Origin: a virus
Lineage: Duplodnaviria > Caudoviricetes
Length of the DNA: 50,705 nucleotides
IMG/VR virus record: IMGVR_UViG_3300025769_000013
Span: 1 to 50,705 of that record
Reading direction: 5' to 3' (one strand)
Under the pieces are notes generated by a model, which was given only the letters and a program-made list of their open reading frames with translations, was not told the origin of the DNA and did no database searches. How positions within the stretch are numbered: the stretch's first letter is position 1; each line of letters opens with the position of its first letter. Made by a program: the position numbers and the translations under genes. Positions 7,506-48,527 of the stretch are shown in pieces.

Positions 7506-8114
7506 TTAGAGACTGGATTCAACCTTCTCGATTAGGGTGAAGAGTTCCTCATCTTCGGGAGCCTGGAAGGTGGTGTCACTGAGCTCCTGGTGAACATTCG
7601 AGCGAACAGGTGCTCCGAATGACAGGCAGTTCCTAATGACTGCCTTGATCAACTGAGTCCGCTCTTGGTTGGTATCGATTTTTCCCTGGTCGAGACTAAT
7701 AGGGAAGTCACCAGCGGAGACTACGTAGTCCCCGAACTTCTTGCCCAGACGTTTGGCGTTTTCGAGGTCATACTCGACAGGGTGTCCCTGTACGTGGGTG
7801 GATACTACAGCTTCCTGGCGACCTGCTGCAGTAGGATCAAAGGAGAGCAGGTTGTATTTCTCGTCTGAGACTAAAGGGAATATTTCAAACTTGTTAAGGT
7901 ACTTTGTACCATTTTTGTCAGAGGCATACCCAAGGGTGCCATTGACAACGTGCCATCCTGAAAACCCAGGTGCGGATTCAATGCTCGCAATTTCTGCATT
8001 ATAGGATCCGGAGTGGTTTACGCTCCACGATTTATGGAGATTGCGTTGAGCTGGGCTAACCCATTTAAGGGCATCAGCAATTAGGGAGAAGGTGCGAATG
8101 TAGGTGAGGTGCAT
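7506..8114 (-). CDS. hypothetical protein
   Basis: 202-aa ORF, first gene of minus cluster. Confidence 0.75.
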   Translation of the reverse strand: MHLTYIRTFSLIADALKWVSPAQRNLHKSWSVNHSGSYNAEIASIESAPGFSGWHVVNGTLGYASDKNGTKYLNKFEIFPLVSDEKYNLLSFDPTAAGRQEAVVSTHVQGHPVEYDLENAKRLGKKFGDYVVSAGDFPISLDQGKIDTNQERTQLIKAVIRNCLSFGAPVRSNVHQELSDTTFQAPEDEELFTLIEKVESSL

Positions 8115-8177
8115 TTTCTGTCAGTATTTGTAGACTTCCTGGAACTGCCAGGGCAGGCGTTGAATCATTCAACAGCA

Positions 8178-8229
8178 TCCATCTTTGGTATTATTTTCAA
8201 TCTGTCAACACAAACTGAAAACTTTTTTT
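8178..8229 (-). promoter_or_regulatory. sigma70-like promoter for the minus-strand gene cluster
   Basis: TTGACA (8208-8203 on -) with upstream A-tract; -10 box only weakly matched. Confidence 0.55.
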
Positions 8230-8274
8230 CGATCAGAACCAGTCATAGGTGCTAGTATAAGGTTTTCATAGATT

Positions 8275-8333
8275 TCCTGTCTGGGTGCGGTTTAATCCTC
8301 AATAATTGCTCATTGGGTATGTCCCAGACAGGA
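8275..8333 (+). ncRNA. candidate hairpin antisense RNA (11-bp clamp, 37-nt loop)
   Basis: TCCTGTCTGGG (8275-8285) / CCCAGACAGGA (8323-8333); loop 13-mer complementary to start of gene 48119-48409. Confidence 0.5.
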
Positions 8334-8336
8334 TAT

Positions 8337-8411
8337 GGTAGGGAGGGCGTTGGTTCCCAGATGAGACTCATAACCTCATCCACACTGGTTCGATTCCAGT
8401 CCCTGCTCCCA
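8337..8411 (+). tRNA. atypical tRNA with CAU anticodon (Met/Ile2-like)
   Basis: Acceptor GGTAGGG/CCCTGCT, D arm GGG-cgttggtt-CCC, anticodon arm GATGAG-a-CTCATAA-c-CTCATC, T arm ACTGG-TTCGATT-CCAGT, encoded CCA. Confidence 0.8.
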
Positions 8412-8429
8412 ATTTTTTCGTATAAACAC

Positions 8430-9092
8430 ATGAGTGAACTGACAGGTGAAGAGTTAAATCAAATCAGAAGACGTAATTTCGGGGAGTATGTGGTGAGTAC
8501 TCCAGGATTAGGCCCCTTCGATGCATTTCGGATGGTAGATGGTGTAGACCAGAACCCGGATATTGCGGACTGGGTGAAGGACATGTTTACCAGCAAGCAG
8601 TTGGGTTTCTTTACTGAAAAGACTCCAGCCAGCGTGGGTAAATATTGGCTCAAGACTAGTGGACCGCCTGTCCTTATGCAGCAAGGCGATTGGTTTGTGA
8701 AGGTCTGCGATGATCCGCTGACCATCAATCGATATCCAGACGCAATTTTCCAAATCATGTTCGGGGCGAAGGAAGTCCTGGCCCCAAATGGAGTGGAAGA
8801 GCCGATGACCCGGGTAATTGAACTCTACTCTCCTTCTGCGGAGGCAGCAACCCTATCTGGAGAGATCGCAGCCTACATGGAAACCTCCTACAAGGACTGG
8901 ATGTCCAAAGCCTACTACCACTACATGGAGATCATCAAGGATATGCTAATCCGTGGTCCAATTCTGGACCGAATTAAGCCCATCCAGGAGTACACGGACA
9001 AACTGGAGGCGAAAGGTGGTCAGATCACTAAGGCAAAATATTTCAAACTTCTGAAGCGGGGCATGCAGATGCTCAATCCAGACGTAAATTGA
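8430..9092 (+). CDS. hypothetical protein upstream of TerL
   Basis: ATG 8430 just after tRNA; LMQQGDWFVK..YPDAIF motif. Confidence 0.75.
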   Translation: MSELTGEELNQIRRRNFGEYVVSTPGLGPFDAFRMVDGVDQNPDIADWVKDMFTSKQLGFFTEKTPASVGKYWLKTSGPPVLMQQGDWFVKVCDDPLTINRYPDAIFQIMFGAKEVLAPNGVEEPMTRVIELYSPSAEAATLSGEIAAYMETSYKDWMSKAYYHYMEIIKDMLIRGPILDRIKPIQEYTDKLEAKGGQITKAKYFKLLKRGMQMLNPDVN

Positions 9093-11815
9093 TGGAGCGG
9101 CACGGGTATGCATTTCCTGATGAATGGGATGACCTTCGGATAGAACTATGGTGTCTGGCGAATGCTGAAGATACGCATCTACACTTGAAACACTGTATGA
9201 TGCTTCTCTGGCCTCACCTTTACCAAGGGGAAATTGCTCCAGGTGTACCGAGGTGGAGAGAGGATTTGGAATTGATGACATGGGCGTGGTCTAATTACCG
9301 GACGATGACAGTGATCGGACACGCCAGTGCTGGAAAATGCTTAAAAGTTAATACAGAAGTATTAATGTTTAATGGCGAAAAGAAAAAAGTGCAAGACATA
9401 AAACGAGGAGATTTGCTAATGGGTGATGATTCTACTCCTCGTAAAGTCCAAGGGGTCTGCACTGGTCGAGAGGAAATGTTTAAGATCATTCCCAGCAAAG
9501 GCGATCCCTGGGTTTGCAATCGCAGTCACATTCTCTCTCTCAAAGCATCCTACGTCCCAAAAAAGAACACAGACTTTGAAAAGGGAGATGTTCGTGATGT
9601 GCCTCTGGAAGAGTTTTTGACTTACGGCGAGACTAAGCGACGAGTCTGGAAGCAATATCGGGTCGGAGTGGATTTTCCTAAGCAGAAAGAGCCGCTTTTG
9701 ATCGATCCATATATCCTTGGGGTATGGATTGGTGACGGCACAAAGGGAGAGCTAGAAATCACAAAACCAAAAGGCAAGGTAGTTGATGAGTGGATTAACT
9801 ATTGGTCATCTCGTGGACTATCAGTTTCAGAATACCAAGTAAAAGACCGTTGCAAAAGATGGAGAGCAGTTAACAAAGAAAGGCACGGTGACTATCGTCA
9901 ATTTATTCGAGGACTTGCGACGACTGGTCAAAAGATAATCCCGCAAGAATACCTCCTGGCATCCAGAGAAAGACGCTTAAGATTACTAGCTGGATTGATA
10001 GACACTGATGGGTATGTAGACAAGAATGCTTATGCCATCACCACAAAATGGAAGGGACTTGCTGATCAAATTCTATTTTTGGCAAGATCTTTAGGTTTTG
10101 GGGCAAACCTCACTGAGACTACTGGGAAAATTAAATCACTGGGCTTTGAAGGGACTTACTGGAATGTTCATATTTCCGGTGAGGTGCAAAATATACCTAC
10201 TCTTGCTAAAAAAGCGGAGGGGAAAATATCAAGAGATCCATTACTCCAGGAGATCCGAGCGGAATCATTAGGCGAAGGTACTTACTATGGGTTTGAGATC
10301 GATGGAAATCGGAGGTTCCTACTTGGAGACTTCACCGTCACTCACAATACCCATACGCTGGCCCATATCGCTTACACGCACTACCTTTCTGATGCTGCCA
10401 ACACGATTATTACGCTGACCTCCACTCACCTACCAGGTCTCAAAAAGAGGTTATGGTCAGATATCGTATCCGCTCATAAAACCTCAGTCTTGGGGGAGCT
10501 CATGCATGTAAAGACGTATGACATGACGATGCGTCCAATGGATAATCCAAAAGAGGACAAATATGTCATTGAGGGAATTGCAGTAGACCGTGGCGAAGAG
10601 GCGGTAACCCGGATCCAGGGCAATCACTCCAGGGACCATCGATATGTGATTATTGATGAGGCGGAAGGTACGCACCAGGCGATCTTTGATGCAGCATCCA
10701 ACTTGATGACAGATAACGACTTTCGTTGGGCAATGTTGGCGAACCCCGAGAATGAAAATGGAGAGTTTGGGACCTGGTGTGAACCGACACGCGGTTGGAA
10801 CTCCATTGATGCAGAGCAGGATCTCTACTGGGAGACTGCTAGAGGTGGTGTGTGTGTTCGATTGGACGGGTTAAAATCGGCAAACTTTCGGAATCCTCCA
10901 CCAGAGGGAAAGAAACCATACTTTCCATTCCTGATTGATCAAAATTACGTGGATAGAATCAAAACATCCTACGGTTTTGAATCACCCCGGTGGTGGATTT
11001 TCGTGCGTGGTTGGTTTCCTCCAGCCGGATCAATGGGGACGATCTTTTCTCGGAACATCCTGGCTCAAGCAGTGGAGCCGATTTTCTACAACTACCCACC
11101 TACGCCATGTGCTGCATTGGACCCTGCTTTCGAGGGTGATGATGAATGTATGCTCCAATTTGGAGAGTACGGGGAGGCGAATGGATCCAGGTTTGCGTTC
11201 AATTTTAAGGAAGAGCAGGCAGTAAAGGCGAAAGTTCGGCCCGGAGGTGAACCATTGGACTACGTCATTGCTCATGAAGTTATGAACCAATGTGACGCCA
11301 GGGGTGTAAAGCCGGAAAACTTCATCATGGACACTACTGGTGCTGGCCGGGGCGTTTATGCGATCCTTCGCAAGGAGTGGGGGAAAGTCGAAAAGTGCGA
11401 TTTTTGGGGAAAACCGAGTGATCGACGCCTTCGGGCATTTGATGACATGACCTGTGGGGACCAGTTTGATCGATTTGTTACGGAGCTTTGGTTTTCTTGC
11501 CGAATATTCATGGAATCTGGTTTGATTGGTGGAGTCACAATGGATTTCAAGAAGTTGCGGGAGCAATTATCCGCCCGGAGGTTCGAGATTAAGTCCAAAA
11601 AGGAATCTATCGAGACCAAGAAGGATATGAAAAAACGGTTAGGCTACTCGCCTGACCATGCGGACGCATTTGTACTATTTACTGAGCTCCTGAAGCGTAA
11701 AGGAGCAGTCACCGGTGAGGAAAAACTCCCTGAAAACGAGGATGAATCACAGTGGGACCGAGCTAGGGCCTACAGCGATGTAGCAGAGGAGAGTTTTGCA
11801 CATGGATTTGCATAA
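9092..11815 (+). CDS. terL: terminase large subunit with intein
   Basis: Walker A GHASAGK|T after splicing, Walker B VIIDEA, LANP, nuclease ALDPAFEGDD, MDTTGAG, SPDHADA. Confidence 0.93.
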   Translation: MERHGYAFPDEWDDLRIELWCLANAEDTHLHLKHCMMLLWPHLYQGEIAPGVPRWREDLELMTWAWSNYRTMTVIGHASAGKCLKVNTEVLMFNGEKKKVQDIKRGDLLMGDDSTPRKVQGVCTGREEMFKIIPSKGDPWVCNRSHILSLKASYVPKKNTDFEKGDVRDVPLEEFLTYGETKRRVWKQYRVGVDFPKQKEPLLIDPYILGVWIGDGTKGELEITKPKGKVVDEWINYWSSRGLSVSEYQVKDRCKRWRAVNKERHGDYRQFIRGLATTGQKIIPQEYLLASRERRLRLLAGLIDTDGYVDKNAYAITTKWKGLADQILFLARSLGFGANLTETTGKIKSLGFEGTYWNVHISGEVQNIPTLAKKAEGKISRDPLLQEIRAESLGEGTYYGFEIDGNRRFLLGDFTVTHNTHTLAHIAYTHYLSDAANTIITLTSTHLPGLKKRLWSDIVSAHKTSVLGELMHVKTYDMTMRPMDNPKEDKYVIEGIAVDRGEEAVTRIQGNHSRDHRYVIIDEAEGTHQAIFDAASNLMTDNDFRWAMLANPENENGEFGTWCEPTRGWNSIDAEQDLYWETARGGVCVRLDGLKSANFRNPPPEGKKPYFPFLIDQNYVDRIKTSYGFESPRWWIFVRGWFPPAGSMGTIFSRNILAQAVEPIFYNYPPTPCAALDPAFEGDDECMLQFGEYGEANGSRFAFNFKEEQAVKAKVRPGGEPLDYVIAHEVMNQCDARGVKPENFIMDTTGAGRGVYAILRKEWGKVEKCDFWGKPSDRRLRAFDDMTCGDQFDRFVTELWFSCRIFMESGLIGGVTMDFKKLREQLSARRFEIKSKKESIETKKDMKKRLGYSPDHADAFVLFTELLKRKGAVTGEEKLPENEDESQWDRARAYSDVAEESFAHGFA
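9338..10348 (+). mobile_element. intein with LAGLIDADG homing endonuclease (337 aa)
   Basis: Begins CLKVNTEV, block B WVCNRSHIL, DPYILGVWIGDG and LLAGLIDTDG motifs, ends FTVTHN followed by Thr. Confidence 0.95.
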
Positions 11816-12050
11816 AATCAGATGGTTGCGGACTACGCACTTGATTCCCCCGGGTGGATGGAAATTCAAGGACCCAGACAGTCAGCTACCTATCACCGCA
11901 CCGACTTTCGAGGCACTCAAGGAACGAGTCATCACCCACCGGACTTACCTGGGGAATGACACCAGCAATTACCCGGATGAGATTGAGCATCAAATTTGTT
12001 CAGAGATTCCTGAGTCCTGGTGGCAGGACAAACCGAGAACTGTATCATGA
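11802..12050 (+). CDS. hypothetical head-module protein
   Basis: PPGGWKF..HR...IEHQIC; overlaps terL end and portal start. Confidence 0.75.
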   Translation: MDLHKIRWLRTTHLIPPGGWKFKDPDSQLPITAPTFEALKERVITHRTYLGNDTSNYPDEIEHQICSEIPESWWQDKPRTVS

Positions 12051-14200
12051 ACGACCTGAGTGAAATTACGAACGAACGGAGAGTAGGAACAGTAGTTTCT
12101 GCAAATACTCTCTACCAGAAACTAAAGAAAAAGGGTGATGAGCGGGAACGTGGATTTGCCTCCATCGAAAACCAGATCAATGGTGGACGCCCCTATGATC
12201 CTCAAAAGCTGGCGGAGCAGGGGCAATCCTGGCGAGCAAACTTCAATTTTGGAGATGCTGCCAGTGCGTTAGAGCAGGCCCAGGTCTCCTACTGGAGGTT
12301 GCTGCACGATACATCCAACCTTCTGAATGTGGAAATCCACGGAGACCATCAACATAAGGATCGATGGTCTCAAACCTTGGTGCATAATTTTAACCGATTC
12401 ATTGAAGACTGGGGTGATGAGTATGTTCTGAACTATCTCCAATTTTCACGAAACCATTTAATGTATGGAGTTGGTCCTGTCATTTTCCCAGATAAAGACT
12501 CAGCCCGATGGGAACCTATAAGAACAAATGGTGTCCTCGTCCCTGAACGAGCAAAATCTGCATCCAGTAAGCAGGAAATCGTCTGCATCCGCCAGGAAAT
12601 GCAAGTGTCTGAACTCTGGGAGAAGATTCGGACCGATAAAGCAAAGGGGCATAACACAACCCGTGGCTGGAAGGTAAAAGAGATCCGGGATGTTTTGTAT
12701 CACACTCTGAGAAACGGACAGAAGGCATCCAGTGAGGATGACCTAATAAAGATGGAGGATAGTATCCGAAATCGGAGCACTGAGGTCTCTGAGGAGCATG
12801 GTGCTATCAATATGGTCTACCTCTATGTAAAAGAGTGGGACGGAAAAGTCAGCAAGATGATGTTCTGCGAGGACAACCCTACTGCAGGTTTCGTTTTTGA
12901 TGATCATGATACCGCATTCCGAAGTGATTCAATCGATGACGATATTAGTTTTGTCTTCTTTGAAGTCGGGAATGGACTTTACCATTCCGTCAGAGGATTT
13001 GGATACAAAAACTACCAAACCAGCATCGCATCGAATCGATTGAAGTGTAAAGTACTGGACCGTTGCACCATCGAAGGTCTCAATTTTCGGGATACCTCCG
13101 AAGGGACTCGGACTATCCTGCCGATTGTGAACATGGGTGCGTACAATATCGTGCCGAGAGATTTGGAGCAATTGCCAAACTATCCGGGCTCGTCATCAAT
13201 TGGAGATGCTCTTGGAATGATCCAGGATACAGTCAATTGGAATAATGCCCGGTACAGGGACCAATCCCAACAGATTGAGCAATCAAATACTGCTACCCAA
13301 GCACGGATCCTGGCTAATCTTCAATCTCAGGTTGAAGTCTCCAACGCGACCCTTTACTTGAAACAATTTGCCCAGAATATCATGGCGAAACAGTTCGAGA
13401 GACTACGCCGGAAAGGGAATACTGATCCGGATGCGGTGCTATTTAAAAAACGGTGTACCGAGGATGGCAAAATGCCAGTGGAAGCTTTCCATACAATTGA
13501 AGTTACTGTTGGTACTGGAGCGGACCCTGGAAAGACCTCTGCAGCACTGCAGGCCGAGATCTCCTTCCAACTTCTTCAACTCCAGGGTAACCGATATGTC
13601 AATCGACGTGCTGCCACGGAGGCGTATATTGAAAGTACCACTGGAGCTTCCTCAGTGAAGCGGTTTATCCTTCCAGAGGATCAGCTTGAGGACAAGGGTG
13701 CAGTCCGCCTTGCCCAGATTGAAAATACCAGCCTGGGTGACGGCGTACCTATTGAAGTGACCGAGCGTGATGACCACGTCATGCATATCATGACCCACAT
13801 GGAGCCACTAAAAGGAATTGTGGGAACCGCTCAAACGATTGAAGAGGGGCAAATTGGTATGCCAGCAAATGCAGGCATGCCTACGCAACCATCACTCTCC
13901 CAGGAGCAAATGATAGCTCTGGAGACTACCCTGCCCCACATCGCCACACACCTCGAGTACCTCAAACTGGATCCATTTCAGGAACAGGACTACCAGCAAT
14001 TGCAGGCGGAGTTTAAACAACTTGCGTCAGTGGCTGAAGGTATGATCCGAAAAATGGAGGAGACGGCACTGGCATTTGCTAATCAACAACAATTTGGAGG
14101 ACCAACGACACTCGATGGTGCCGACATGCAACCCACGCAAACCGATGAAACTATTCCAACGGATTTTTCACCGCAAGGACTCGATTCCTTTGCTCCCTAA
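12047..14200 (+). CDS. portal protein
   Basis: 717 aa directly after TerL; YGVGPV, TATQARI, DDHVMHIMTH motifs as in P22-like portals. Confidence 0.8.
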   Translation: MNDLSEITNERRVGTVVSANTLYQKLKKKGDERERGFASIENQINGGRPYDPQKLAEQGQSWRANFNFGDAASALEQAQVSYWRLLHDTSNLLNVEIHGDHQHKDRWSQTLVHNFNRFIEDWGDEYVLNYLQFSRNHLMYGVGPVIFPDKDSARWEPIRTNGVLVPERAKSASSKQEIVCIRQEMQVSELWEKIRTDKAKGHNTTRGWKVKEIRDVLYHTLRNGQKASSEDDLIKMEDSIRNRSTEVSEEHGAINMVYLYVKEWDGKVSKMMFCEDNPTAGFVFDDHDTAFRSDSIDDDISFVFFEVGNGLYHSVRGFGYKNYQTSIASNRLKCKVLDRCTIEGLNFRDTSEGTRTILPIVNMGAYNIVPRDLEQLPNYPGSSSIGDALGMIQDTVNWNNARYRDQSQQIEQSNTATQARILANLQSQVEVSNATLYLKQFAQNIMAKQFERLRRKGNTDPDAVLFKKRCTEDGKMPVEAFHTIEVTVGTGADPGKTSAALQAEISFQLLQLQGNRYVNRRAATEAYIESTTGASSVKRFILPEDQLEDKGAVRLAQIENTSLGDGVPIEVTERDDHVMHIMTHMEPLKGIVGTAQTIEEGQIGMPANAGMPTQPSLSQEQMIALETTLPHIATHLEYLKLDPFQEQDYQQLQAEFKQLASVAEGMIRKMEETALAFANQQQFGGPTTLDGADMQPTQTDETIPTDFSPQGLDSFAP

Positions 14201-15660: not shown

Positions 15661-15686
15661 CTATAGTAACTCCAGTAACTTGAATA

Positions 15687-15725
15687 ACCCTGTCTTGAGC
15701 TAATCGCTCAGGGCGGGGTATTTTT
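15687..15725 (+). terminator. intrinsic terminator-like hairpin
   Basis: ACCCTGTCTTGAGC-taatc-GCTCAGGGCGGGGT then ATTTTT. Confidence 0.65.
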
Positions 15726-15739
15726 GTGCTTAACTCAAT

Positions 15740-15907
15740 CGCTGGGTAGTGACCAGCGGAACAGTCAGAGAGCTGTTGGGTGACACCCCAGCGACAGGCG
15801 AGCCAAATGGTCCCGATGGCACGAGGACAGTCCAACCACCGGGTTCAACTGTCGCTCACTGCTAAGGGAAAGCCCGGTGAAAATCGAAACTCAAATTTTC
15901 ACCCAAA
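15740..15907 (+). ncRNA. structured 5' leader of capsid gene (pseudoknot plus alternative hairpin)
   Basis: Pairings 15790-15797/15849-15856, 15837-15845/15871-15879 and 15876-15884/15895-15903. Confidence 0.55.
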
Positions 15908-17218
15908 ATGGCAAATTTAGCTAATTATTTCCGCACCCGCCGGAACCAGTATCAAAAGGATACAATTCAACGCCTCTTTAGAGGCAATCCCGTCCGTTCT
16001 CTAGTCAACCACCGCGAATACAATGGTGCTGATGGAGAGAACCCAACTGTGGTCACCCACACTCACGAACTCCCAGAGACGTATCCATTGAATGGTTCCG
16101 CTGGTTCTGACCTTACGGATTTCCGTATGGAGACTATTAAGAGGACCAACCACGATGGCACGAACTACGACGGAGAGGACAGTGGTGACACCGATGATCC
16201 AAATGCATTGCTTGCTGGTGCTCCTGCGAACACTCCAACTTCTCCTGAAGGCACTGCGACACTTGCTGACGTCGGTAACCCAACCCAGTACGAAGTTCGT
16301 CGTGGTCAACTGGAACGTACCTTCGAGATTCGTCAGGTTTCTTTCGAGACTGCTGACATCGCTCTCGACGACATTAAGCGTTCCTGGCAAGCCGCCGAGA
16401 CTGCTGGTGCATGGGGTAAGGCTCTTCGTGAGTTTACCACTGTGGTGTTCTCTGACTGGTATCGTGTTCAGAACATTGGAATGGTCACCAATAAGTATGT
16501 TCCTACTGGAGCGACATCCGGTGTTTCCGTCAGTGATAACTACGACCAGGATTTTAGTCATGCTACCTTGACTGCTGGCACCCCAGCTCAATTAGAGTGG
16601 TGGCACTTGGAGGAATTGTACTGGGATCTTGTGGCTCGTGGAGTTACTGACGAGATCGCAATTGGTACTGCCAATGGTCGCCCAATACTTCCTCTCGTTG
16701 TTTCTCCAAAGGTAAAAAATTACCTCTGGCGTGATGAAACTGCAAATGCCGAGACGTTTAAGTGGCTGCGTCCTGAAAGTCGCATTGCTCAACTGGGACA
16801 TCCTGCCGCAATCAAAGGGTTTTATCCGATTGTGGACGTGTTTCCAATGCGTTGTGCTAATGAGGCTGGTCTGGATGCAGGTACTTACATCTACCCTACA
16901 GAAAACGTAGCAACCTCGTTCGGATTTAAGCACCAGCCCAATGCAGCTTATAAGACGGCGGAAATGGAGATCGCCACGATCCTTCCTGCTGACGTTTATG
17001 AGTGTGTGTACGAGCCCTCCAGCCCCACTGCATTCGATGGCATCAAGTTTGACCCGCAGGACTACACTGGCGAGTTCAACTTCATGAACCAGAAGACCTA
17101 TAAGGGTGACAATGACCGTGGTAACCGTGGTTACTACCTGGCAGACATCCGCATGGGTGCCAAACCCCGCAATCCTGACCTTGGATATTCTATCGCTCAC
17201 GATGTTAGCGGACTCTAA
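15908..17218 (+). CDS. major capsid protein
   Basis: 436 aa after scaffold, biased codon use, followed by strong terminator. Confidence 0.8.
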   Translation: MANLANYFRTRRNQYQKDTIQRLFRGNPVRSLVNHREYNGADGENPTVVTHTHELPETYPLNGSAGSDLTDFRMETIKRTNHDGTNYDGEDSGDTDDPNALLAGAPANTPTSPEGTATLADVGNPTQYEVRRGQLERTFEIRQVSFETADIALDDIKRSWQAAETAGAWGKALREFTTVVFSDWYRVQNIGMVTNKYVPTGATSGVSVSDNYDQDFSHATLTAGTPAQLEWWHLEELYWDLVARGVTDEIAIGTANGRPILPLVVSPKVKNYLWRDETANAETFKWLRPESRIAQLGHPAAIKGFYPIVDVFPMRCANEAGLDAGTYIYPTENVATSFGFKHQPNAAYKTAEMEIATILPADVYECVYEPSSPTAFDGIKFDPQDYTGEFNFMNQKTYKGDNDRGNRGYYLADIRMGAKPRNPDLGYSIAHDVSGL

Positions 17219-27759: not shown

Positions 27760-29103
27760 ATGGCAGTTTACGCACAAGCACCAGACGCACAACCCAACCC
27801 GGTTGGCACATTCATTAATGCCTTCTCGACTGGGCGTAACCTATTCCAGCAGAAGCAACGTCAAGAGATGGAGATGCAACGTCTTCAGAGAGCGGAGGAA
27901 CGTGCAGTTCGACAAGAGGAAAGGCAGGCAAAGCTTTGGAGTATGCAGATGAACTCGAAAGAGTTGGAGGTCGAGGCATTGGGGCGTCAGGCTGAAGATG
28001 ATATCGCTCGGAGAGATCGTGCCAGTGGAGATTTACCAAGGGCTTTGCAGCAGTTTGAATTGATTGGATCACAGATAGATGCAATGGAGGCGGCGAATGA
28101 AGAGGATGTCCCTGGATATCGGAGTAAGATTGCGACCATGTATGCAAAGCTTGAAGCAATCAAAGGTCGATACAGTCATGTCCAGGGAGATGCTCGGTGG
28201 GCAACTCAATTTGATGATGCCTACTATCAGGTAACCAATAAGCTTTCTCAGAAAGCAGCACCGTTGGAGGCAGTTCTTCCTGGTGCATTCAATAAGTTCC
28301 GAGAAGAGTTTGCATCACTAAAGGGAATTACTGACCTGAATGAGTATGCAGCAAGAGCAGGTGATATTGAAAAACGGTACGCTTACTTTGCTTCAGATCC
28401 CGTCCGTGGCCAGATGTTTGAGTCGATGGTGGATAAAATGGATGAGAATATCAAATCCATGAGAGAGAACCAATTCAAAGCACAGAAAGAGCAGCAAGAG
28501 CTCGAAGGGCTCAAACACTCAAATCAAAAAAAGGAGTTAGAAGTTGAATCTGCGAAGAAGCAGAAGGTTACTGATAAGAACAATGCAGTTAAAAACCAAC
28601 AGAGGTTACTGCAAGAGCGAGATAAGATTAGGCGTTTACGGAATGATATCCAGAATGCTGATTTTGGTGTAGGCGGAACAGGTACTATTATAGAGGCACT
28701 TAAGACAGCTAAAAGGCTCGGCGGAAGAAGTGCTGGTGCATCAATTGCAGACGAAATTGTTTCCGGTGAGTGGTTAAAGAATGTATCTGCTCTAAAGGGT
28801 GCTTTGTCTGATAAAGAAGGTGCAAGACTCGCAATTGCTGGGTTAAAGAGAACTGATGATAAGGCAGTCTGGTTAAGGAAGCTGAATAACCTCATAGCTG
28901 CATTGGATACTGATCGAGCTTTACTAAGTGAACAGGGGATGTGGTATATCGACGAAAAAGGGAAACCTTTTTCATTATCTGAGGGCACTGAGCAGGAAGA
29001 GATCGGCGATAGTGATGTCAATGATCTGCTCGGAGGTGGAGAATATACACCGCCAGAGGAAGAGCCTGATTTCAGTATTTTTGAAGACCCAGAGGGAAAT
29101 TAA
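27760..29103 (+). CDS. internal virion/ejection protein
   Basis: Coiled-coil; LKGALSDKEGARL motif seen in ejection proteins. Confidence 0.6.
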   Translation: MAVYAQAPDAQPNPVGTFINAFSTGRNLFQQKQRQEMEMQRLQRAEERAVRQEERQAKLWSMQMNSKELEVEALGRQAEDDIARRDRASGDLPRALQQFELIGSQIDAMEAANEEDVPGYRSKIATMYAKLEAIKGRYSHVQGDARWATQFDDAYYQVTNKLSQKAAPLEAVLPGAFNKFREEFASLKGITDLNEYAARAGDIEKRYAYFASDPVRGQMFESMVDKMDENIKSMRENQFKAQKEQQELEGLKHSNQKKELEVESAKKQKVTDKNNAVKNQQRLLQERDKIRRLRNDIQNADFGVGGTGTIIEALKTAKRLGGRSAGASIADEIVSGEWLKNVSALKGALSDKEGARLAIAGLKRTDDKAVWLRKLNNLIAALDTDRALLSEQGMWYIDEKGKPFSLSEGTEQEEIGDSDVNDLLGGGEYTPPEEEPDFSIFEDPEGN

Positions 29104-29107
29104 AGCA

Positions 29108-32100
29108 ATGGGATACACAGACACAGAGAAGCAGGAGATTCTAGCAGGGGTTCCTGAGGATGTGAAAAACCGTGCAAGGCAAGGTGATCGTGATGCAATC
29201 GATTTGATTAAAGGGAAAATTTCGGAATGGAAGTCAGTGACGGAATTACCACAGACACAGACTCAAGCTCCAAAAACTCTATCAGATCGATCTCGTGTTA
29301 TTGATCTGGCCAATCAGGATAACTTTAACTGGGATGAGATCTCTGGTCTAATCGATTCTGGTAAGCTTACGGATGAAGTGGTGGAGTTTTTCGCCAGTGA
29401 AGGGTATGGATTGGAGCAGTCCCTTACTGGTGGTCGGATTATCAATATTGGAAAGAAGGGTAACTATATTTCCAGCCCACAAGGGCGGATGCTCAGTAAG
29501 CTGGGAGAGAGTATTTCTTCTGTTGTTACAATACCCTGGCGTGGCCTTGGAGATAATGATCCAACATCCATGTCTAAGGATGATTTCTACAGGTATCTAT
29601 TAAAGCAACCCAAAGATGATTGGGCTCGGACAGGAGTTGAGAAATTAATCCGGAAGCAACTTCAAGAACGGCAACAAGAGGAACAGAAGGCATATGCACT
29701 TCATGGAGAAGATGCGAATGTCGATATGCACGGAAAAGCCGGAGCTTTAAGCCAAAAGAACGAAATCCCAGCACCAACTCCACAGGATTGGTTCCCAGAA
29801 AAGTTTCTGAAATCAGAAGATGGATCATATTCTGCAAACAAGAGTGAATTAAAACGATACAAATCTGTAATCCTGGAGAATGATCCATATGCGGCATCGC
29901 AGGTGGAACAATTGACCGGACGGGCAGTTGCTGACTTTTATTATGCCAAGAAGGAGGAAGACTCCCAGATGCTCGAACGATTAAATCAGCTTCAAGCAGA
30001 AGGAAGGACGCATCTTCATGACCCTGAGGTTTATGATTGGTTTGTCCGCAGGGGTATGGAGAAGACTCAGGACATCACCTTGGGCCAAGCGATTGACGCT
30101 GGTTGGGATATATTAGGACAAGTTTGGCAAGGGTTGGTTGGCTCGGAAGATGGTTCTGGGATTATCAAGGAATTCGGAGATACAGTATTCAAAGACGATG
30201 CTGCTGAGTATCAAGAGTTTGATGAACTGGTTGGAGAGTCATTCCGGGCATTGGGTTCTGACTACCAACTCCTGAGTGAAAATGCAGGCGGATACTTCTT
30301 GGATCTTATTGAAAAGGCGGATGACAAGGATAGTCCTGAAGCTCAGGAGTTGTATCGAAAAGCGAAATCTGAGCGAAATCGTAAGTTCCAGCTCAGGGCA
30401 TTATCAAACCAAGCAGTTTACGCAAGGGCATCCCAGTCATTGGCATTGAGTCAGGGGAAGAATCCCCAGCAGATGCAGAAGAATATTCTAACTGGTACAT
30501 TTACTTTTGATCCGATGAACTTCGTTCCTATGGGAGGTGTATCAAAAAAAGGTGCAGAGGCGACTCTTAGGGCTGGAGTGAATACACTAAATGATGGTGC
30601 ATTGAAGACTGCGAAGATTGCTGCTGACGAAGCATCGAAAGCTATTTCAGATGCACAAAAGGTGTTGATCGATGCAAAGAAAGCGGGGGATGGTGCTGCG
30701 ATCCAATCTGCCAAAAAGACTTATGATGACGCTTTGAAGCAATACGATAATGCTGAGAAGGCGTTAAAGGAGGCATCGACTAAGGTTGATAATATCTACC
30801 AGGAGTTATTGGAAGCAGGCATGCCAAAACTTTCGGGAAAAGCACTGGAGATGATGGGAGCCGCCGGAGAGTGGATCATGAAGAAAGGCGATGAGGCTTT
30901 AGATAATATCGCAGTTAAGATCGCCCCAGGCATGGCAGATGACACAAGACGATTGCTTGAAGGCGGAGTAAAAGTCGGTGTTGCTGCTACGTTAGGAGGG
31001 GCAAGTCTCGGAACTGTAGGTGCAGTCGTCGGAGGCGTATTGTTAGGAAGTCCAGTAGCAAGAGCACTTGCAAGAGATATGCGGTTAATGGGATCACATA
31101 TTGCACTTGGAGCAAGACTTCAGCCTCTACACCGAGCATTGCAAGCGACCACTGATGCAGGAGGAAATGTAATTTCTCCTGCTTCCTTTGGAACAAGAGT
31201 AGCGGCAAGAGGGTACGAGGCGGCATTTCCCTTTGTAGATCCAGTCGCCAGACTCGGAAGTCGAGTTGTTAAAGGAGTTGCCTCCGTGCAAACGGCGGAG
31301 GCGATGGCAATCCAGTCCGCTATCGGTTATTTGGGATCAGGAGGCACTTGGCAAGGTGCAGTGACTGGAGCGACAATGGGTTTTGGCATGGCAGGGTCTT
31401 TTGGTGCTGCTGGAGCACTTACGCCTTTTGGAAGTCAGAAACAGGTCAATCAATTGGCAGCAACGAATGCTAGGCATTACCGTGATATGTTAAAAGGCAC
31501 TCCTACTGGCGACGAGTTTGCAAAGCTACCATTTGAGGATCAGAAAGCAATAGCATGGGCTATGGGCGGTTTCACAGATACCGCACTCAAGATTATCAAT
31601 GACCCAAATGCACCTGCTGGAGCGTATAACCCAGCAAGGAATGAGATCAACATCAATACAGGGCGAAGAGAGTGGACTAAGGAGTTTGCCAGAAATGTAG
31701 CGAAACATGAACACTCTCATTACATCGCAAGGCATGTTGGTGTCCGTGAGAAAATCCTGAAGACTTTGTTGGCGGATGACTTCTCTCTCCAGTCAGGAAT
31801 CTTTGCTAAGAAGGGGAAAGATGGTAAAGCACTGTATAAGCTAGACCGTGATACTATCCGGGAGATCATGCGTAAAAATACGCAAGGTAAGTCTGTCGAT
31901 GAGGTAATGCAGGAACTTGGATTGTCCAGGGAAGCTGTTGAGTCACTTGGTCAGGTGTTGACTGTCGGTGATCGTCGTAGAAATGACGTTTACATTGAAA
32001 CCACTGATGACTTTAAGGACATCACCAATACATATTTGTCAAAACTGGCGGCATCCAACCCCTTTGCCGCCATTGATTTAATCAACAAAGGTGAGAGGTA

Positions 32101-35100
32101 TGTACAGGAGTACATTGCTGAAGAGATTTTTGCAGAACAGGGGGCAGCAGAAATTGCTAACTACACTCCAGCTTATGCGAAAAGCTTTCGACGAGCTGCA
32201 TGGAGAAAAGATTTGGATGCAGCTCTAAGCAACCCCAGGTTCTCAGGCAGGAAAGCAAGTGTGCTGGGGAGAATTGGTGCATTATTTGGATCTGACCAAA
32301 AGATCAACTCTTCTATATTGGGTGCATTTGACTCCATTCCTGAGTTTAAGGAAATATTTGACGGATACAATCACTCCAGGTCAATGAACCGTGACATGCA
32401 ATTGGCCGAATCCAATGCAGACGGGTTAGCACCTTCGGAGATACTTGATCCAAGAGACTGGGATGCGTCAGTCAGCACTCCATCCACTGAGTCCTTGAAG
32501 GCATGGGTCGCCAACGGGATGCTGGATGTAGATCCAAAGACTGGAGTCCCTAAAGGTATTGAAGTTCAGGCAGATGGAAGCTGGAGAGTCCGAGATCCAA
32601 ACCTTATTCGTCAATCTGCGAAAAATGCCGATAAGGCAGCAAAGGAGTTTGGTAGTGAGATAAAGGATTGGCTCGAAGATAACACGCAGCCTCCGAAGTC
32701 TGCCCAAGAGATTAAAGACTCTATCGACAGTCAGGCTCCCCCTCGATCTCAGGCTGAAAAGGATGCTCTGGATGAAGTGAAGAAGAAGATTGATGGAGGG
32801 GTGAAGCAGGATATCGAGAAGGAGATCCGGGTTCAAAAGTCTCAGTCCGTCCAGGCAACCAAGGACTACCTTGATGATGTTAGTCAAATTATCGACGACA
32901 ACATGGCCGATGATGATGTCGTTGCTCCACGGACTACCATTGATGGCCGAACTATTATTGCAGGCAGATACCTTCCTGAAGACCTACTGACACACCTTGA
33001 AAAGTCTGGGAGGTTTAACCCTCATCAATTACAGAACCTCCGCAATTTGAACCAGTATTTGAAGGATGGACTACATGCCACTCCGATTACGGTGATGTAC
33101 CAATCCACGATGCGAGCTGGGAAAGCAAAGCCTATTGCTGCTGCGGAAAAGACTGTCTATGTAACTGGGTTTGAGGTTACTCAGCAAGGAAACTTTATTT
33201 ACCGCATTTGGAACATTGACAAAATCATGACCAATGGGGCTAAGAAGATGAACTCCAAGATTGGTAAACAGCTTTACAATGGTGATATTGGGCAGTTCAA
33301 TCAGGATGTCTACACTTACTTCAATAACTACGCAAAAGGACTTCCTGGAGCTACTGGATTGAGTGCGACCAAGCGAGATTTCATCCGCAAAGCCATTGGT
33401 CTTGCTGACCCTAACACATCCTCTAACTCTGGAAGGACTCCAAACCCATACGCTTGGAATGTCCAGCCGTTAAAAGACGCAAAGGATACAGCGTTAAACT
33501 CCTATAGACTTGATCGCACAAATTGGATTGACCTTGGGAACCCAAGGATGAAGAAACCGCTGGATGCTCCATTGACATCAAGGGAAGGACCAAATCCAGG
33601 TAGTTACCAGCGGATCAGGGAGAATTACCACCCTGGCGACATAGACTACCTTGACGCAGTGGAGTCTGGTGACATGGAGACTGCTCAGAAGATGGTGGAT
33701 GAGGCTGCGAAGAAGGCGGGATGGACTGTATTGGCATGGCATGGCACTACGCAGGGAGCGTTAAAAGGAAACAAGTTTGATCCCAGTAAACAGCAAAGAG
33801 GCTTCATTACTTCCGCAGGGTATTTCACAACAGATAAGCGAGCGGCAGCAGGGTACGCAACCTCTGGAGGGGCGGGACATTACCCAAAAGGCAGCAAAGA
33901 AAGGAAGGCTCTCGAAGGAGGGGAAAGGCCGTACGACCCTTCACTATATAGAGTTTACTTAAAAGGCGACTGGTGGAAGGGTGATATTGATACAGATGCT
34001 CTAGTTGAGGCAGTGAACACTGTAAACAACAAAGGTATTGCCGATGAGTTTGATTTAGAGTGGACCTCGACATGGGATGATAAGGAAGGGTATGCCAGTC
34101 GTACTGACAGTTACCCAGACGTAGTCTTTGATACTCCAGAGGAATGGTTAAGGGACTTTGTCGAGAAAGGTGAGTTTGATTCGTACGTAGGAAACGATAC
34201 GGATGCTATTGGTTCTGAGTCACCTATTGCATTTGTCTTTTCTAATTGGGAAGTTGGTAAAGAATATCTGAATATAACAAAAAAAGATGGAGTTACTTAC
34301 TTTGATAAGGAAACAACCGAAGTTGATGCGTTTTCCGATAATGCAACTACTTATGTCCCCACGAATCCCAACCAGATCAAATCCGCCGACCCCGTGACTT
34401 ATGATGATGCTGGTAGCGTCATTCCGTTGAGTGAGCGATTCAACCCCAAGAGCGACGATATCCGCTATCACCCAGGCACTGACTCCGACTACCTAAAAGC
34501 AGTGGAGTCTGGAGACACTGAGACTGCTCAGAAGATGGTAGACGAGGCTGCGAAGGCTGCGGGGTATAAAGTTGTTTACCATGGGACGACCAAAAAGGGA
34601 TATACCAATATATGGAAGTCAGGAAAACTGAAACCAGATGCAGAACCAGCAGTTTATGTCACCACCGATTCAGAAGGTGGTGGTTATGGAGATGGCACTG
34701 TTCTCCGAATTGGAATTAAAGAAGGTCGATTGGAAATCGATGATGAATTCCCAGGCGGAAGAGAAGATTATCGTGTGGAGGTGGGTTACCAGGGAGAGAT
34801 TCAAATCAAATCCGCCGACCCCGTCACCTACGATGATGCTGGTAACGTCATCCCGCTCTCCGAGCGATTCAACCCGAAGAGTGACGATATTCGCTTCTTC
34901 CCTGGACTCGATGACGAATCCACCAAACGTGCAGGCTTCAACTTCACTGCAGTCTCCGATCGTATTCCTGTCATCCGTGACCTCTACGCGAAGAAAGACT
35001 GGGAAGGACTCAGGGAGATCAATCGATCACTTATCTCCCACGCCCTGGCTGACATCCCCAGAAGTAAACTCAAAGTAACCACAGAGGATATCCATGGTGT

Positions 35101-38491: not shown

Positions 38492-39133
38492 TTACGCCGC
38501 CTGTTTGAGGACACGGGCAACGGTGGTGCCGTGCCAGGTGCCACCCTTTGGAGAAGGTACACCCTCGCCATTAAGGATCTCAGCAATCCCACGAATGGAG
38601 ACCTTCTCTTCACGGAGTCCAACAATCTTGGAAATGGTTTCCTGGTCATCGTAGGGTTTCTGACCACCACAGCGACCAGTCTGGGCCTTTACGTGAGCAC
38701 GGGCAGAAGCCAGACGGGCAACAAGCTGACTTTTCTGGAACTCTGCCACTGCTCCGAGGACCTGGCGGATCAGGGTGCGGGTGGAGTCCCCTTCGATGTT
38801 GGTGAGTTCCACACCACTGGTGTCAAATACGGGAATGCCAGCATCTCTGAATTGGGCAAGGATGACCTCCCCTACCAGTAAATCCCGTGCGATACGGTCA
38901 CTGGACTCCACCAGGATGGTGACGCCTTCCTCCACGCTCGCAATAAGGTCAGAGAGACCCTGGCGAGAAAATCCATCAGTGGTTCCACTTACACCTTCAT
39001 CACTGAAGGTCTTAACAATCTTGTATCCATTCGCTTTTGCGAAGGCACGAATGTTTTCTTCCTGACGGGTTAATCCGTTCCCATCGATCTGCCCGATGGA
39101 GGAAACTCTTAAATAGGAAAATGCGATTTTCAT
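38492..39133 (-). CDS. serine recombinase (resolvase/invertase family)
   Basis: YLRVSS..Q, DEGVSG...RQGL, VESSDRIAR, C-terminal HTH with GTWHGTTVARVL. Confidence 0.93.
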   Translation of the reverse strand: MKIAFSYLRVSSIGQIDGNGLTRQEENIRAFAKANGYKIVKTFSDEGVSGTTDGFSRQGLSDLIASVEEGVTILVESSDRIARDLLVGEVILAQFRDAGIPVFDTSGVELTNIEGDSTRTLIRQVLGAVAEFQKSQLVARLASARAHVKAQTGRCGGQKPYDDQETISKIVGLREEKVSIRGIAEILNGEGVPSPKGGTWHGTTVARVLKQAA

Positions 39134-39163
39134 GTACACGATAATCAGTAAGTTATGTGTACA
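39133..39163. promoter_or_regulatory. inverted repeat at serine recombinase start (operator/res-like)
   Basis: TGTACAC(g)ATAA-tcagtaag-TTATGTGTACA. Confidence 0.55.
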
Positions 39164-39183
39164 GATCAACCTAAAAAACAGCA

Positions 39184-39463
39184 TTGGGTTACTTTTTGGA
39201 GTAACCCGACCCTACTTATCCCTTTGATAGAAATGGATATCTTTGGTTTCCGGAGCCGAAAATCTGGGTTCGAGTCCCGGCGGGAGCACCAAGTCACTAA
39301 TAGAGCGGGAAACCGCTTAAATAAAGGGATCAAGAAGGAGATAGTTGACGAATCGGGTTACTTTCAACAGGGTCAAGAGAGTCAAAAAGTACAAGAAAAA
39401 GTAACCCAAAAAGTAACCCAAGGGCATTTTTTGAGGGTTGGGTTACTTAATTTAGTAACCCAA
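39184..39463. repeat. seven AGTAACCCRA integrase arm-type sites
   Basis: Copies at 39184(-), 39200(+), 39353(-), 39400(+), 39412(+), 39438(-), 39454(+). Confidence 0.85.
39243..39291 (+). other. attP core: 3' part of tRNA-Arg(CCG)
   Basis: Anticodon arm TTGGT-TTCCGGA-GCCGA, T arm CTGGG-TTCGAGT-CCCGG, CGGGAGC-A-CCA; 5' acceptor strand absent; next to integrase. Confidence 0.88.
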
Positions 39464-39468
39464 ATTCT

Positions 39469-40518
39469 ATGACCAAAAAAATAAAAATTTACAGACTCCT
39501 TGATCGCTCGAAACAAAAACTTGGCAAGAAATGTTTCGGAGTTCGGGTCAAAGTGGATGGGGCAAAGCCATTCGCCAAATTCTTTTACACACAACTAGAA
39601 AGAGAAACGTGGGTTGATGAATGGAAGATTGAACGCGAAGAAGGCGTCTTTGAAGTTGTATCAAGCAAAGGCAATACAACCACACAAAGTCGTTCGCTCC
39701 ACTGGGCTATTGATGAGTATTTGTCCTATGGAGAGAAAAAAGGCTGGAGGAGTCACACGATTCGCACCAGAAAGCATCGTTTGGGGGAATTAGGAAAGTT
39801 CTTTGGCGATGTAGGGATGAAGACCATTGAGCGGAAAGATGTCATCAAATTCATTGAGAAGTCAGCAGCCACCAATGTTCTCCGTAAGGCCTGGTGCAGT
39901 GACACAGTCTCCTTCTTTAATTGGTGTGGAAATGAAGACCAGGGGCGGACTTGGTTACCACCATACAAGTTTTCCAAGCTTCAATGGACCCGACTCGCCG
40001 AGGATGAGACTGGAGTTGGGATACTATATCCTGATGAAGCCGAGGATATACTAAATGGCATTTTACCAAAATACCGTGCAGGGATGGCGTTGGCTCTATT
40101 TGCCGGAATTCGCCCAATGGGGGAACTGGATCGTTTACGCTGGGATGATATTCACTTTCGCAGGCAACGTATCATTATTGAAGGGAAAGTATCAAAGACT
40201 CGGAGACGCCGGGTCCTATCAGACCTTCCTGAAAATCTATGGTCTTGGCTTGAAGCCTATAAAAAAGAAAAGGGTCCAGTGATCCATAGTTATTCCGGTT
40301 TCACCCAGGCCCGATACCGGGCTTGTAAGCGTCTCGGTATTAAATATCCACCAGATGGAGCCCGACACTCCTTTGCGAGTTATGGATACTGGCGTGGTGA
40401 AGAATGGTGCCGGAGGACGATGGGGCATACTGCGACCTCCGATGTCTTTCACCGGGTCTACGTGGATGCAGGTCCTAGTCAGGCTGAGTCAGAGGAATAC
40501 TTTGGTATTCTGCCTTAG
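39469..40518 (+). CDS. int: tyrosine integrase
   Basis: LFAGIRP..EL..L.WDDI, SKT, DGARHSFASY, MGH, HRVY. Confidence 0.93.
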   Translation: MTKKIKIYRLLDRSKQKLGKKCFGVRVKVDGAKPFAKFFYTQLERETWVDEWKIEREEGVFEVVSSKGNTTTQSRSLHWAIDEYLSYGEKKGWRSHTIRTRKHRLGELGKFFGDVGMKTIERKDVIKFIEKSAATNVLRKAWCSDTVSFFNWCGNEDQGRTWLPPYKFSKLQWTRLAEDETGVGILYPDEAEDILNGILPKYRAGMALALFAGIRPMGELDRLRWDDIHFRRQRIIIEGKVSKTRRRRVLSDLPENLWSWLEAYKKEKGPVIHSYSGFTQARYRACKRLGIKYPPDGARHSFASYGYWRGEEWCRRTMGHTATSDVFHRVYVDAGPSQAESEEYFGILP

Positions 40519-45296: not shown

Positions 45297-46382
45297 TTAA
45301 GCGGCGGATTCGTCTGGGCCTGCCTCCAGTTTCGATGTAAGGAACGAGATGACCTTTGCCGCTTGTGGCTTAGTTAGTTTGGACCATGTTCCTGCGGGAC
45401 CTTCCAGTTTGTAGAATTTCCAGAGTTGCTTCATGTGGGTCGCCTTGAAGTCCAGGTCCTTTGTGCATTTTTTCCACAAGGATTTGATGTTTTCCTGCTG
45501 GACTGGAGTCGCATTGTCGGACTCGTCAGTTTCCGTCAGAGGATCCACTACTGTCTCTTCTTCAGGCTCACTATCTTGGACCTTATCTTCTACCTTATCT
45601 TGGACCTCTGGTTCTGGTCCAAGCTGAATTTGGGGCTTTGTGCTGGGTGCCGTGTATTCGAAATTGAATGCAGGTGCCAGTGATGACCATTCCGCTGGAA
45701 CTTCAGCCGGAAGGTTGTAACGGTTTTTCGCATCCCATGCCGCATTGTGCTCCAGGTATATTACACGTTCCTTGCCACCTACAGCAACCTTGCCCTTATC
45801 ACCATCGGTGAGGGTAGATTTATAGGTCATGAAGCCGAGAAGGTCCGCCCATTCTTTCACAATTGGACTAATCTTCTTTTCAGCATTCAGTTCGAATCGG
45901 TCATAGGATCCTACTTGACCGGGGTCTTCGTGCTTTTTGGTTACACTATGACCGATCAGGATGACATGGATGCCACGTTCCACGATGCGATCCAGCAAGT
46001 CCAGAAGTTGGGTAAATGCTTCAGCAAGGTGGGTGTACCCTTTGCCGTAACCGAAGTCCTCAATGGACTGCTTATTGGCATTGCTACAAATGTACTGACT
46101 GATCGATTCCTGAACAGAGTCAATGGAGTCAATCACCAAAGAGCGATATGGGAAGTCTGTCGCTTTTGCGATCTCTTCCAAATAGTTCTTGGTAATGAGT
46201 CCCCAATGCTCTTCAGGACTGTATTCGATACGATCCACTTCCAGATTCTTCGTGCCTTTTTCGAGGTCGAGGAACAATGGACTTGGAGCCCAAGTCGCCA
46301 GCGTTGATTTTCCCACTCCTTCAGGACCGTAGATGACGGCCCGGACGGGTGAGGAGATGATTCCTTTTGATATTTTGAACAT
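45297..46382 (-). CDS. Sak4-like (AAA_24) ssDNA annealing ATPase
   Basis: IYGPEGVGKST, VIDSID, IEDFGYGKGY, EWAD, AKNR. Confidence 0.9.
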   Translation of the reverse strand: MFKISKGIISSPVRAVIYGPEGVGKSTLATWAPSPLFLDLEKGTKNLEVDRIEYSPEEHWGLITKNYLEEIAKATDFPYRSLVIDSIDSVQESISQYICSNANKQSIEDFGYGKGYTHLAEAFTQLLDLLDRIVERGIHVILIGHSVTKKHEDPGQVGSYDRFELNAEKKISPIVKEWADLLGFMTYKSTLTDGDKGKVAVGGKERVIYLEHNAAWDAKNRYNLPAEVPAEWSSLAPAFNFEYTAPSTKPQIQLGPEPEVQDKVEDKVQDSEPEEETVVDPLTETDESDNATPVQQENIKSLWKKCTKDLDFKATHMKQLWKFYKLEGPAGTWSKLTKPQAAKVISFLTSKLEAGPDESAA

Positions 46383-48118: not shown

Positions 48119-48409
48119 CTAAAAGTTCAGGTGACTGAGTTTGCGGGTGGAGGTGGTTTCGATCTTTTCGAGAAGTTCATCACCTTCGCCTTCGTGGATC
48201 TTGGCACCTTCGAGAAGGGCCTGGGCGTCTTTCTTGGCCTGACGGCGAGCTGAGACGAACGTCTTAGGCACTACCGTCACCACACCATTCTCGGTGCGGA
48301 TGTGCTTCGGACGATGACGTCTGACGCGGTCCTGGTAGACCGCTTTGTTTCCCGCCAGTAGACGGGTCTGTAATTCTCTCCGTTGCCGGAGACGATTGGA
48401 TTTGCTCAT
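48119..48409 (-). CDS. Arg-rich basic early protein
   Basis: MSKSNRLRQRRELQTRLLAGN N-terminus. Confidence 0.7.
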   Translation of the reverse strand: MSKSNRLRQRRELQTRLLAGNKAVYQDRVRRHRPKHIRTENGVVTVVPKTFVSARRQAKKDAQALLEGAKIHEGEGDELLEKIETTSTRKLSHLNF

Positions 48410-48428
48410 TGGGTTATTGGGTTTGGGT

Positions 48429-48527
48429 TTACTTCAAAAGTTCTTGCAGAATGACGATAACGATGGTCAGGAATGGGGTCGCAATCGCTAGGGTCACTGT
48501 GGCGTGAAAGTAGATTGGGTCTTTCAT
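48429..48527 (-). CDS. 32-aa membrane peptide
   Basis: MKDPIYFHATVTLAIATPFLTIVIVILQELLK; ATGA overlap with upstream gene. Confidence 0.55.
   Translation of the reverse strand: MKDPIYFHATVTLAIATPFLTIVIVILQELLK

Follow-up and report, generated by a model that had tools for sequence, protein, structure and literature searches.

The hairpin at positions 8275–8333 of the freshwater phage genome analysed here is most likely an ordinary, unusually clamped pre-tRNA leader lying beside a decaying phage tRNA-Met gene. According to this interpretation, which has about an even chance of being correct, the hairpin would be the structured 5′ leader of the transcript that carries a tRNA-like element and the late operon, would be removed by RNase P with a local role or none, and would share a 13-nucleotide word with the start of a distant gene by coincidence. 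The interpretation is carried by the anatomy of the locus, its synteny with related phages, its operon context and the statistics of the match. A regulatory RNA at the hairpin is possible, and the evidence that bears on it is weighed below together with two readings of the locus as a DNA site.

The hairpin, the tRNA-like element and their operon

The virus record that makes up the window (the whole stretch of DNA analysed) is complete, with a length of 50705 bp and a terminal repeat of 127 bp. It belongs to a temperate phage, in which a tyrosine integrase (39469–40518) and a serine recombinase (38492–39184) are encoded. The hairpin and the tRNA-like element stand at the head of a rightward packaging and structural operon that begins with terS, an intein-containing terL and the portal (Table 1), the portal-like gene at 12020–14200 being assigned by position and length only and having no Pfam or PHROG match. 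The terL intein (residues 84–420) is absent in all the related terL found (L002–L008), in which the equivalents of residues 83 and 421 join seamlessly. On the other strand, a leftward block runs from 49321 to 40475, with a repressor-like gene first and also comprising the gene called p96, RusA, an exonuclease-like gene, Sak4, SSB, a helicase and a primase. Elsewhere in the window, 28928–37933 is a single ORF of 3001 aa with internal direct repeats (for example 33656/34499, 33677/34520 and, at 20 nt, 34376/34805). The hairpin itself is found within a divergent intergenic region of 315 bp (8115–8429) between the leftward gene 7506–8114 and the rightward operon, and a promoter of the + strand must therefore fall in this interval, bounded by the gene starts at 8114 and 8430. 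The same region contains a perfect 15-bp palindrome, GTTGAATCATTCAAC, at 8159–8173, which is operator-like.

Table 1. Coordinates of the features discussed, in window positions.
Feature	Position	Strand	Basis
GGTG..TATAAG block, putative promoter −10 region (inferred only)	8248..8262	+	resembles GGTGTATAAC of L003
Sigma-70-like match (9/12) for leftward gene 7506–8114; consensus match only	8254..8283	−	−35 hexamer in hairpin 5′ arm
Hairpin 5′ arm, TCCTGTCTGGG	8275..8285	+	sequence; inverted-repeat scan
37-nt loop	8286..8322	+	MFE fold
13-mer TTGCTCATTGGGT, copy 1	8306..8318	+	exact match
Hairpin 3′ arm, CCCAGACAGGA	8323..8333	+	sequence; inverted-repeat scan
Marginal tRNA-Met(CAT)-like gene, 75 nt	8337..8411	+	ARAGORN -ps; Rfam sub-threshold
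T6 run right after CCA-A, conserved in L003-type relative	8413..8418	+	sequence, alignment
First gene of the operon, terS position, no family match	8430..9092	+	47–60% identical homologues before terL in relatives
Large terminase with intein (Hint + LAGLIDADG)	9089..11815	+	Pfam/PHROG, comparison with relatives
p96, proposed target, 96-aa basic protein, early leftward operon	48119..48409	−	ORF list
13-mer, copy 2; minus strand reads ACCCA-ATG-AGCAA	48402..48414	+	exact match

The preliminary description of the locus had reported a perfect 11-bp clamp around a 37-nt loop that ends 3 nt before the tRNA, and all three points are borne out by the sequence, the three bases between the stem and position 8337 (8334–8336) being TAT. 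The hairpin folds at −23.7 kcal/mol with a z-score of −4.5, and none of 200 shuffled sequences was equally stable. It is not unique in the genome, ranking 150th among 33766 windows of 59 nt on both strands, and another perfect inverted repeat, likewise of 11 bp and with 39 nt between its arms, occurs at 45896–45956 within the Sak4-like gene. In the minimum free energy structure, an inner helix of 6 bp pairs 8298–8303 with 8312–8317 and leaves the apical loop 8304–8311 (AAUUGCUC) open. Searches of Rfam returned only a sub-threshold tRNA and a chance lncRNA match between 7800 and 8800 at E ≤ 10, and nothing relevant over the whole window at E ≤ 1, where neither an sRNA family nor the C4 antisense RNA family was matched. 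Additionally, no intrinsic terminator or 3′ stem with a U tail was called in 7900–8600; the 3′ end of the proposed small RNA would come from RNase P and not from a terminator.

The hairpin had also been described as lying beside a tRNA. A tRNA-like element is indeed present at 8337–8411, where ARAGORN under relaxed settings (-ps) draws a full cloverleaf of 75 nt for tRNA-Met(cat); its standing as a tRNA gene is below threshold, since ARAGORN at default settings calls no tRNA in the window and the score with the Rfam tRNA model (RF00005) is 22.4 bits, below the gathering score of 29, with E = 0.061 when 1 kb is searched; the element is not listed in the whole-window search at E ≤ 1. Several parts are well formed: a 7-bp acceptor stem, two of whose pairs are G-U, a fully paired T arm (ACTGG/CCAGT, 5 bp, loop TTCGATT), a 7-nt anticodon loop (CTCATAA) with U33 and a CAT anticodon, and a CCA encoded at 8409–8411. 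Others are defective: the D stem is weak, with Watson-Crick pairs at two of its four positions, and so falls short of a canonical D arm, U8 is absent in the alignment to the tRNA of the related locus L003, and A31 faces C39 as a mismatch. Since the acceptor stem, the T arm and the encoded CCA are kept, a cut by RNase P at 8336/8337 seems plausible.

The proposed course of events at the locus follows from this arrangement. Rightward transcription probably starts just after the GGTG..TATAAG block, so that the primary transcript would begin with the hairpin or close to it. As with any pre-tRNA, cleavage by RNase P would be expected between U8336 and G8337 and would free the leader. The role of the leader would be local at most, possibly in the protection of the 5′ end or in the shaping of processing, or it may have none. 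The promoter is a point against this reading, as a sigma-70 scan did not confirm it: no + strand promoter was found at the locus, and two weak promoter-like sites were seen on the − strand only. The host may use other signals, since few genes have a Shine-Dalgarno sequence. Furthermore, plain leaders do not usually have a stem that reaches to −4 relative to the cleavage site, given the contacts that RNase P makes with leaders.

Related loci and natural variation

Related loci in all the collections searched fall into two lineages. A search with the portal gave seven loci, a portal alignment retrieved the same seven, and an alignment of terS used against metagenome contigs gave seven loci of the same two lineages, while the terS protein had no match among viral contigs, and portal and terL alignments had none among genome contigs. 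Searches with a pattern for the 3′ half of the tRNA found no match, those with a pattern for the junction found the L003 contig only, and those with p202 found no relatives; a blastn comparison with deposited phages returned a single 99-nt helicase-like match. Among sequencing runs, 11 of DNA and none of RNA were found for the phage, and contigs of four of the metagenome runs (X5, X8, X9 and X10) are identical to the window over 7700–9000, with no variants, indels or joints.

Four of the loci (L003, L010, L011 and L012) represent one lineage, with terS 60% identical and identical intergenic sequence. In this L003-type lineage, ARAGORN calls a tRNA-Met at the equivalent position, which scores 60.9 bits with Rfam (L003 only), and the flank common to the window and the L003-type loci reads CCAATTTTTT..ATGAGTGAACTGAC. 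The window element and the L003 tRNA agree in 42 of 76 aligned columns. Because the position and the 3′ flank are shared with this bona fide tRNA, the tRNA-like element of the window is the orthologue of a real tRNA gene, and it looks partly degraded. The leader behaves differently. The L003-type leader of 45 nt has a folding energy of −6.6 kcal/mol (z = 0.39) and folds no better than its shuffles, so the long clamp is not conserved at the locus. The two leaders share only TTCCTG, after the GGTG..TATAA block, and the word ATTGCT. The block of L003, the 14-mer GGTGTATAACTTCC, occurs twice in that contig (7250–7263 and 13622–13635) and also in L002 (4804–4817); its repetition in L003 is a hint that it may be a phage promoter motif and that the leader would start there. 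Judged by the distance from the portal, the second copy lies near the equivalent of the intergenic region 15661–15907 of the window, before the gene 15908–17218. A comparison of the L003 leader with its own contigs gave no antisense match of at least 13 nt elsewhere, the promoter-like 14-mer being the sole repeat.

Loci of the other type (L004/L007) have no tRNA at this site. In L008 (1222–1323, the same as in L014), which belongs to another lineage, a tRNA-like element of 102 nt lies between terS and terL and scores 33.4 bits with the Rfam tRNA model, ARAGORN making no call, so that the position of tRNA-like elements relative to the terminase genes varies within this phage group. ARAGORN also calls a tRNA-Ser(gga) on the minus strand of L002 (3539–3619) and L003 (12357–12437), just after the L003-type portal and opposite to the structural genes; no equivalent was called in the window.

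A tRNA-like element in a temperate phage with both a tyrosine integrase and a serine recombinase raises the idea of an attP remnant, that is, a duplicate of the 3′ portion of a host tRNA gene, with the hairpin as an adjoining recombination site. It is highly improbable here. Between the integrase and the element lie 31 kb, and a separate cluster of AGTAACCCAA repeats (39355–39463) immediately precedes the integrase. The element itself is no 3′ fragment: it forms a full cloverleaf, 5′ half included, and is syntenic with a complete tRNA in the relative. The idea was disfavoured on two of these grounds, the integrase not being adjacent and the element being full-length.

The inverted repeat could also act as DNA, either as an operator for the divergent promoters or as part of a terminase recognition site upstream of terS, with no function as RNA. 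This is quite unlikely. The repeat sits in the divergent control region and immediately upstream of the terminase genes, but the hairpin arm does not recur beyond chance (13 genome matches at up to two mismatches against 16.6 expected), a count on which the arm as a repeated operator was rejected, and nothing is conserved in the relatives. The leftward gene's only promoter-like match has its −35 hexamer in the 5′ arm, and the nearby palindrome GTTGAATCATTCAAC makes the region rich in symmetric sites; against this, the half-sites of the hairpin are 48 bp apart, centre to centre, a spacing that is atypical for a dimeric regulator. No pac or cos site can be read from the ends of the genome, as the 127-bp terminal repeat lies at arbitrary coordinates.

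The 13-nucleotide match to the start of p96

The recurrence of loop positions 8306–8318 at 48402–48414, over the start of the minus-strand gene 48119–48409, had been noted before and holds exactly. The window contains two copies of TTGCTCATTGGGT, both on the + strand, and no third copy even with one mismatch allowed; the identity extends by no base on either side. Two other readings of the word were rejected: as a member of a family of sites it has 22 matches at up to three mismatches against 17.4 expected, and a small minus-strand ORF at the copy near the hairpin reads M-S-N-Y-stop. At the distant copy, positions 48407–48409 are the ATG of p96, and this is its only usable start, as the frame is closed by a TAA two codons before it and the candidates that follow, GTG codons, come only about 43 codons further on. 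The protein has no Pfam or PHROG family and no informative look-alike in the Atlas (nothing at 0.9 or above). Its single homologue is P0002, with 61% identity over residues 13–96, and searches with p96 alone or aligned with P0002 found no further homologues. p96 is a real-looking gene with one homologue, and membership of the leftward replication block makes its classification as an early gene a reasonable one.

It has been proposed that the leader hairpin, freed by RNase P, acts as an antisense RNA in trans, its loop pairing with ACCCA-AUG-AGCAA of the p96 mRNA and blocking initiation. As a whole this is unlikely, and the same doubt attaches to its corollary that transcription of the late operon would thereby shut off an early gene. 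In its favour are the exact complementarity of 13 nt across the only usable start and the low probability of such an event for this particular loop. When the loop was dinucleotide-shuffled 20000 times, 682 shuffles (3.4%) gave any 13-mer genome match and 21 (0.1%) a 13-mer antisense to the start codon of a called gene, so the earlier estimate of a few percent, lower at a start codon, was about right for this loop. The second figure also counts against the leader interpretation, as does the setting of the 13-mer. The word lies on the presumably transcribed strand and within the loop of the structure that is locally the most stable, and its 5′ half is predicted to be exposed in the open apical loop opposite an unstructured target site.

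The genome as a whole gives a different measure. It holds 71 pairs of maximal repeats of at least 13 nt (37 direct and 34 inverted), where 30 shuffles gave 19.3 direct (sd 5.0) and 20.9 inverted (sd 5.2), and under the leader interpretation the identity with 48402–48414 would be a coincidence and one of these 71. Two loci genome-wide have a 13-mer antisense over a called start codon; the other is a 14-mer within a gene, aimed at a doubtful ORF, which leaves the hairpin loop as the sole such match located in non-coding DNA. When all non-coding DNA was shuffled (29 segments, 2608 nt), at least one antisense-to-start match appeared in 152 of 3000 shuffles, a family-wise level that is not small and that speaks against an antisense function. 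The gene calls behind these counts are crude, being greedy longest ORFs with five replaced by hand, for 68 genes in total. The outcome is ambiguous: a fair chance figure lies between 0.001 and 0.05, depending on how the pair was picked, and would be larger if near-misses also counted. A single perfect 13-mer identity, taken by itself, is weak evidence in a genome of 50 kb.

Composition bears on the match as well. Half of the target word, ACCCAA, is part of a motif that occurs in the genome more often than expected for other reasons, with seven copies of TAACCCAA against 1.5 expected and 21 of AACCCAA against 9.2 expected; directly upstream of the p96 ATG there are three AACCCAA copies, one of which is also a copy of TAACCCAA. 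Repeats of the AGTAACCCAA/TAACCCAA type are located at 39355–39463, where the AGTAACCCAA type clusters in direct and inverted orientation just upstream of the tyrosine integrase, and also at 39184–39191 and 48409–48429, and TAACCCA-ATG is found in front of the serine recombinase gene as well as of p96. The repeats near the integrase, the serine recombinase and p96 are possibly recombinase or regulator sites.

Regarding the energetics, the pairing appears feasible. The 13-mer duplex amounts to −20.9 kcal/mol, and the opening costs are 4.13 kcal/mol for the whole 13-mer, 0.23 for the apical loop 8304–8311 and 0.4–0.8 for the target site, which leaves a favourable net of about −16 kcal/mol. On the other hand, hybridisation energy alone fails to single out the pair of loop and p96, whose value is unexceptional. 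When the loop was compared with 68 start regions by duplexfold, p96 came second at −24.0 kcal/mol, after a doubtful ORF at −28.5; 1000 shuffled loops had a mean best match of −25.0 (sd 2.6), and 98 of them reached −28.5, in a control that ignores accessibility, the opening energies having been computed by hand. A control with other non-coding 37-mers was excluded, being contaminated by the terminal repeat.

The wider context of the antisense proposal is divided in the same way. The module of acceptor stem, T arm and CCA is intact, the 11-bp clamp could stabilise a freed fragment, and the candidate target, for which a homologue exists, lies beside RusA in an early replication and recombination block, downstream of the repressor-like gene. 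However, the only tRNA-bearing relative lacks the hairpin, p96 is absent from the four related virus records searched (the L011 record not among them), the match lacks even a one-base extension, and the locus has no intrinsic terminator, other sRNA module or Rfam sRNA family. A more specific version is likewise unlikely, namely that the 5′ leader of a decaying tRNA has been co-opted so that late-operon transcription and the RNase P of the host give rise to a clamped hairpin of 60–70 nt, whose apical loop would seed pairing over the p96 AUG and silence the gene late in infection, the tRNA-like element serving mainly as a processing signal.

Known systems and biological meaning

The T4 tRNA gene cluster encodes small stable RNAs of unknown function. 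These are phage non-tRNA RNAs that are co-transcribed and co-processed with tRNAs, and their likeness to the hairpin is one of general background rather than of compared sequence or structure. The most ordinary counterpart is the 5′ leader of a pre-tRNA, which, as outlined in the source cited, is removed by RNase P (PMC4919922). The hairpin resembles it as a non-coding stretch directly 5′ of a CCA-ended cloverleaf, with a cut expected at −1/+1; it differs from the leader of the related phage in its 11-bp clamp ending at −4 and its far greater structure, and the tRNA here is below family thresholds.

In its logic, the closest known system is the C4 antisense RNA of phages P1 and P7, which gives the antisense proposal a precedent. 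C4 is described as trimmed by RNase P, with loops that occlude the ribosome-binding site of a phage mRNA (PMC5320573). If the antisense function holds, both would be phage RNAs cut from a longer transcript by the RNase P of the host, with a loop that pairs at a translation start. Unlike the hairpin, C4 as described there is an RNase P substrate that keeps the part 3′ of the cut, whereas the regulator here would be the 5′ part; additionally, C4 uses two short loops (a′ and b′) in that account, and the present locus is without an Rfam sRNA match and is known from its sequence alone. A second comparison is offered by 3′ETS-leuZ, the 3′ external transcribed spacer of glyW-cysT-leuZ, presented in the source cited as a regulatory RNA derived from tRNA maturation (PMC8383071). 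The likeness, again on condition that the antisense function holds, is that of a by-product of tRNA-precursor processing that base-pairs in trans; as presented there, 3′ETS-leuZ differs in being bacterial, in coming from the 3′ side and in sponging sRNAs rather than blocking the start of an mRNA.

In two phage lineages the terminase operon is headed by a tRNA-Met gene, and in one of them this gene is visibly decaying. Were the antisense proposal correct, it would reveal a new way in which phages make sRNAs, whereby the discarded 5′ leader of a pre-tRNA becomes the regulator and a degenerate tRNA serves as the handle for RNase P. It would also represent an early–late switch acting on translation, and a new form of phage riboregulation that depends on RNase P.
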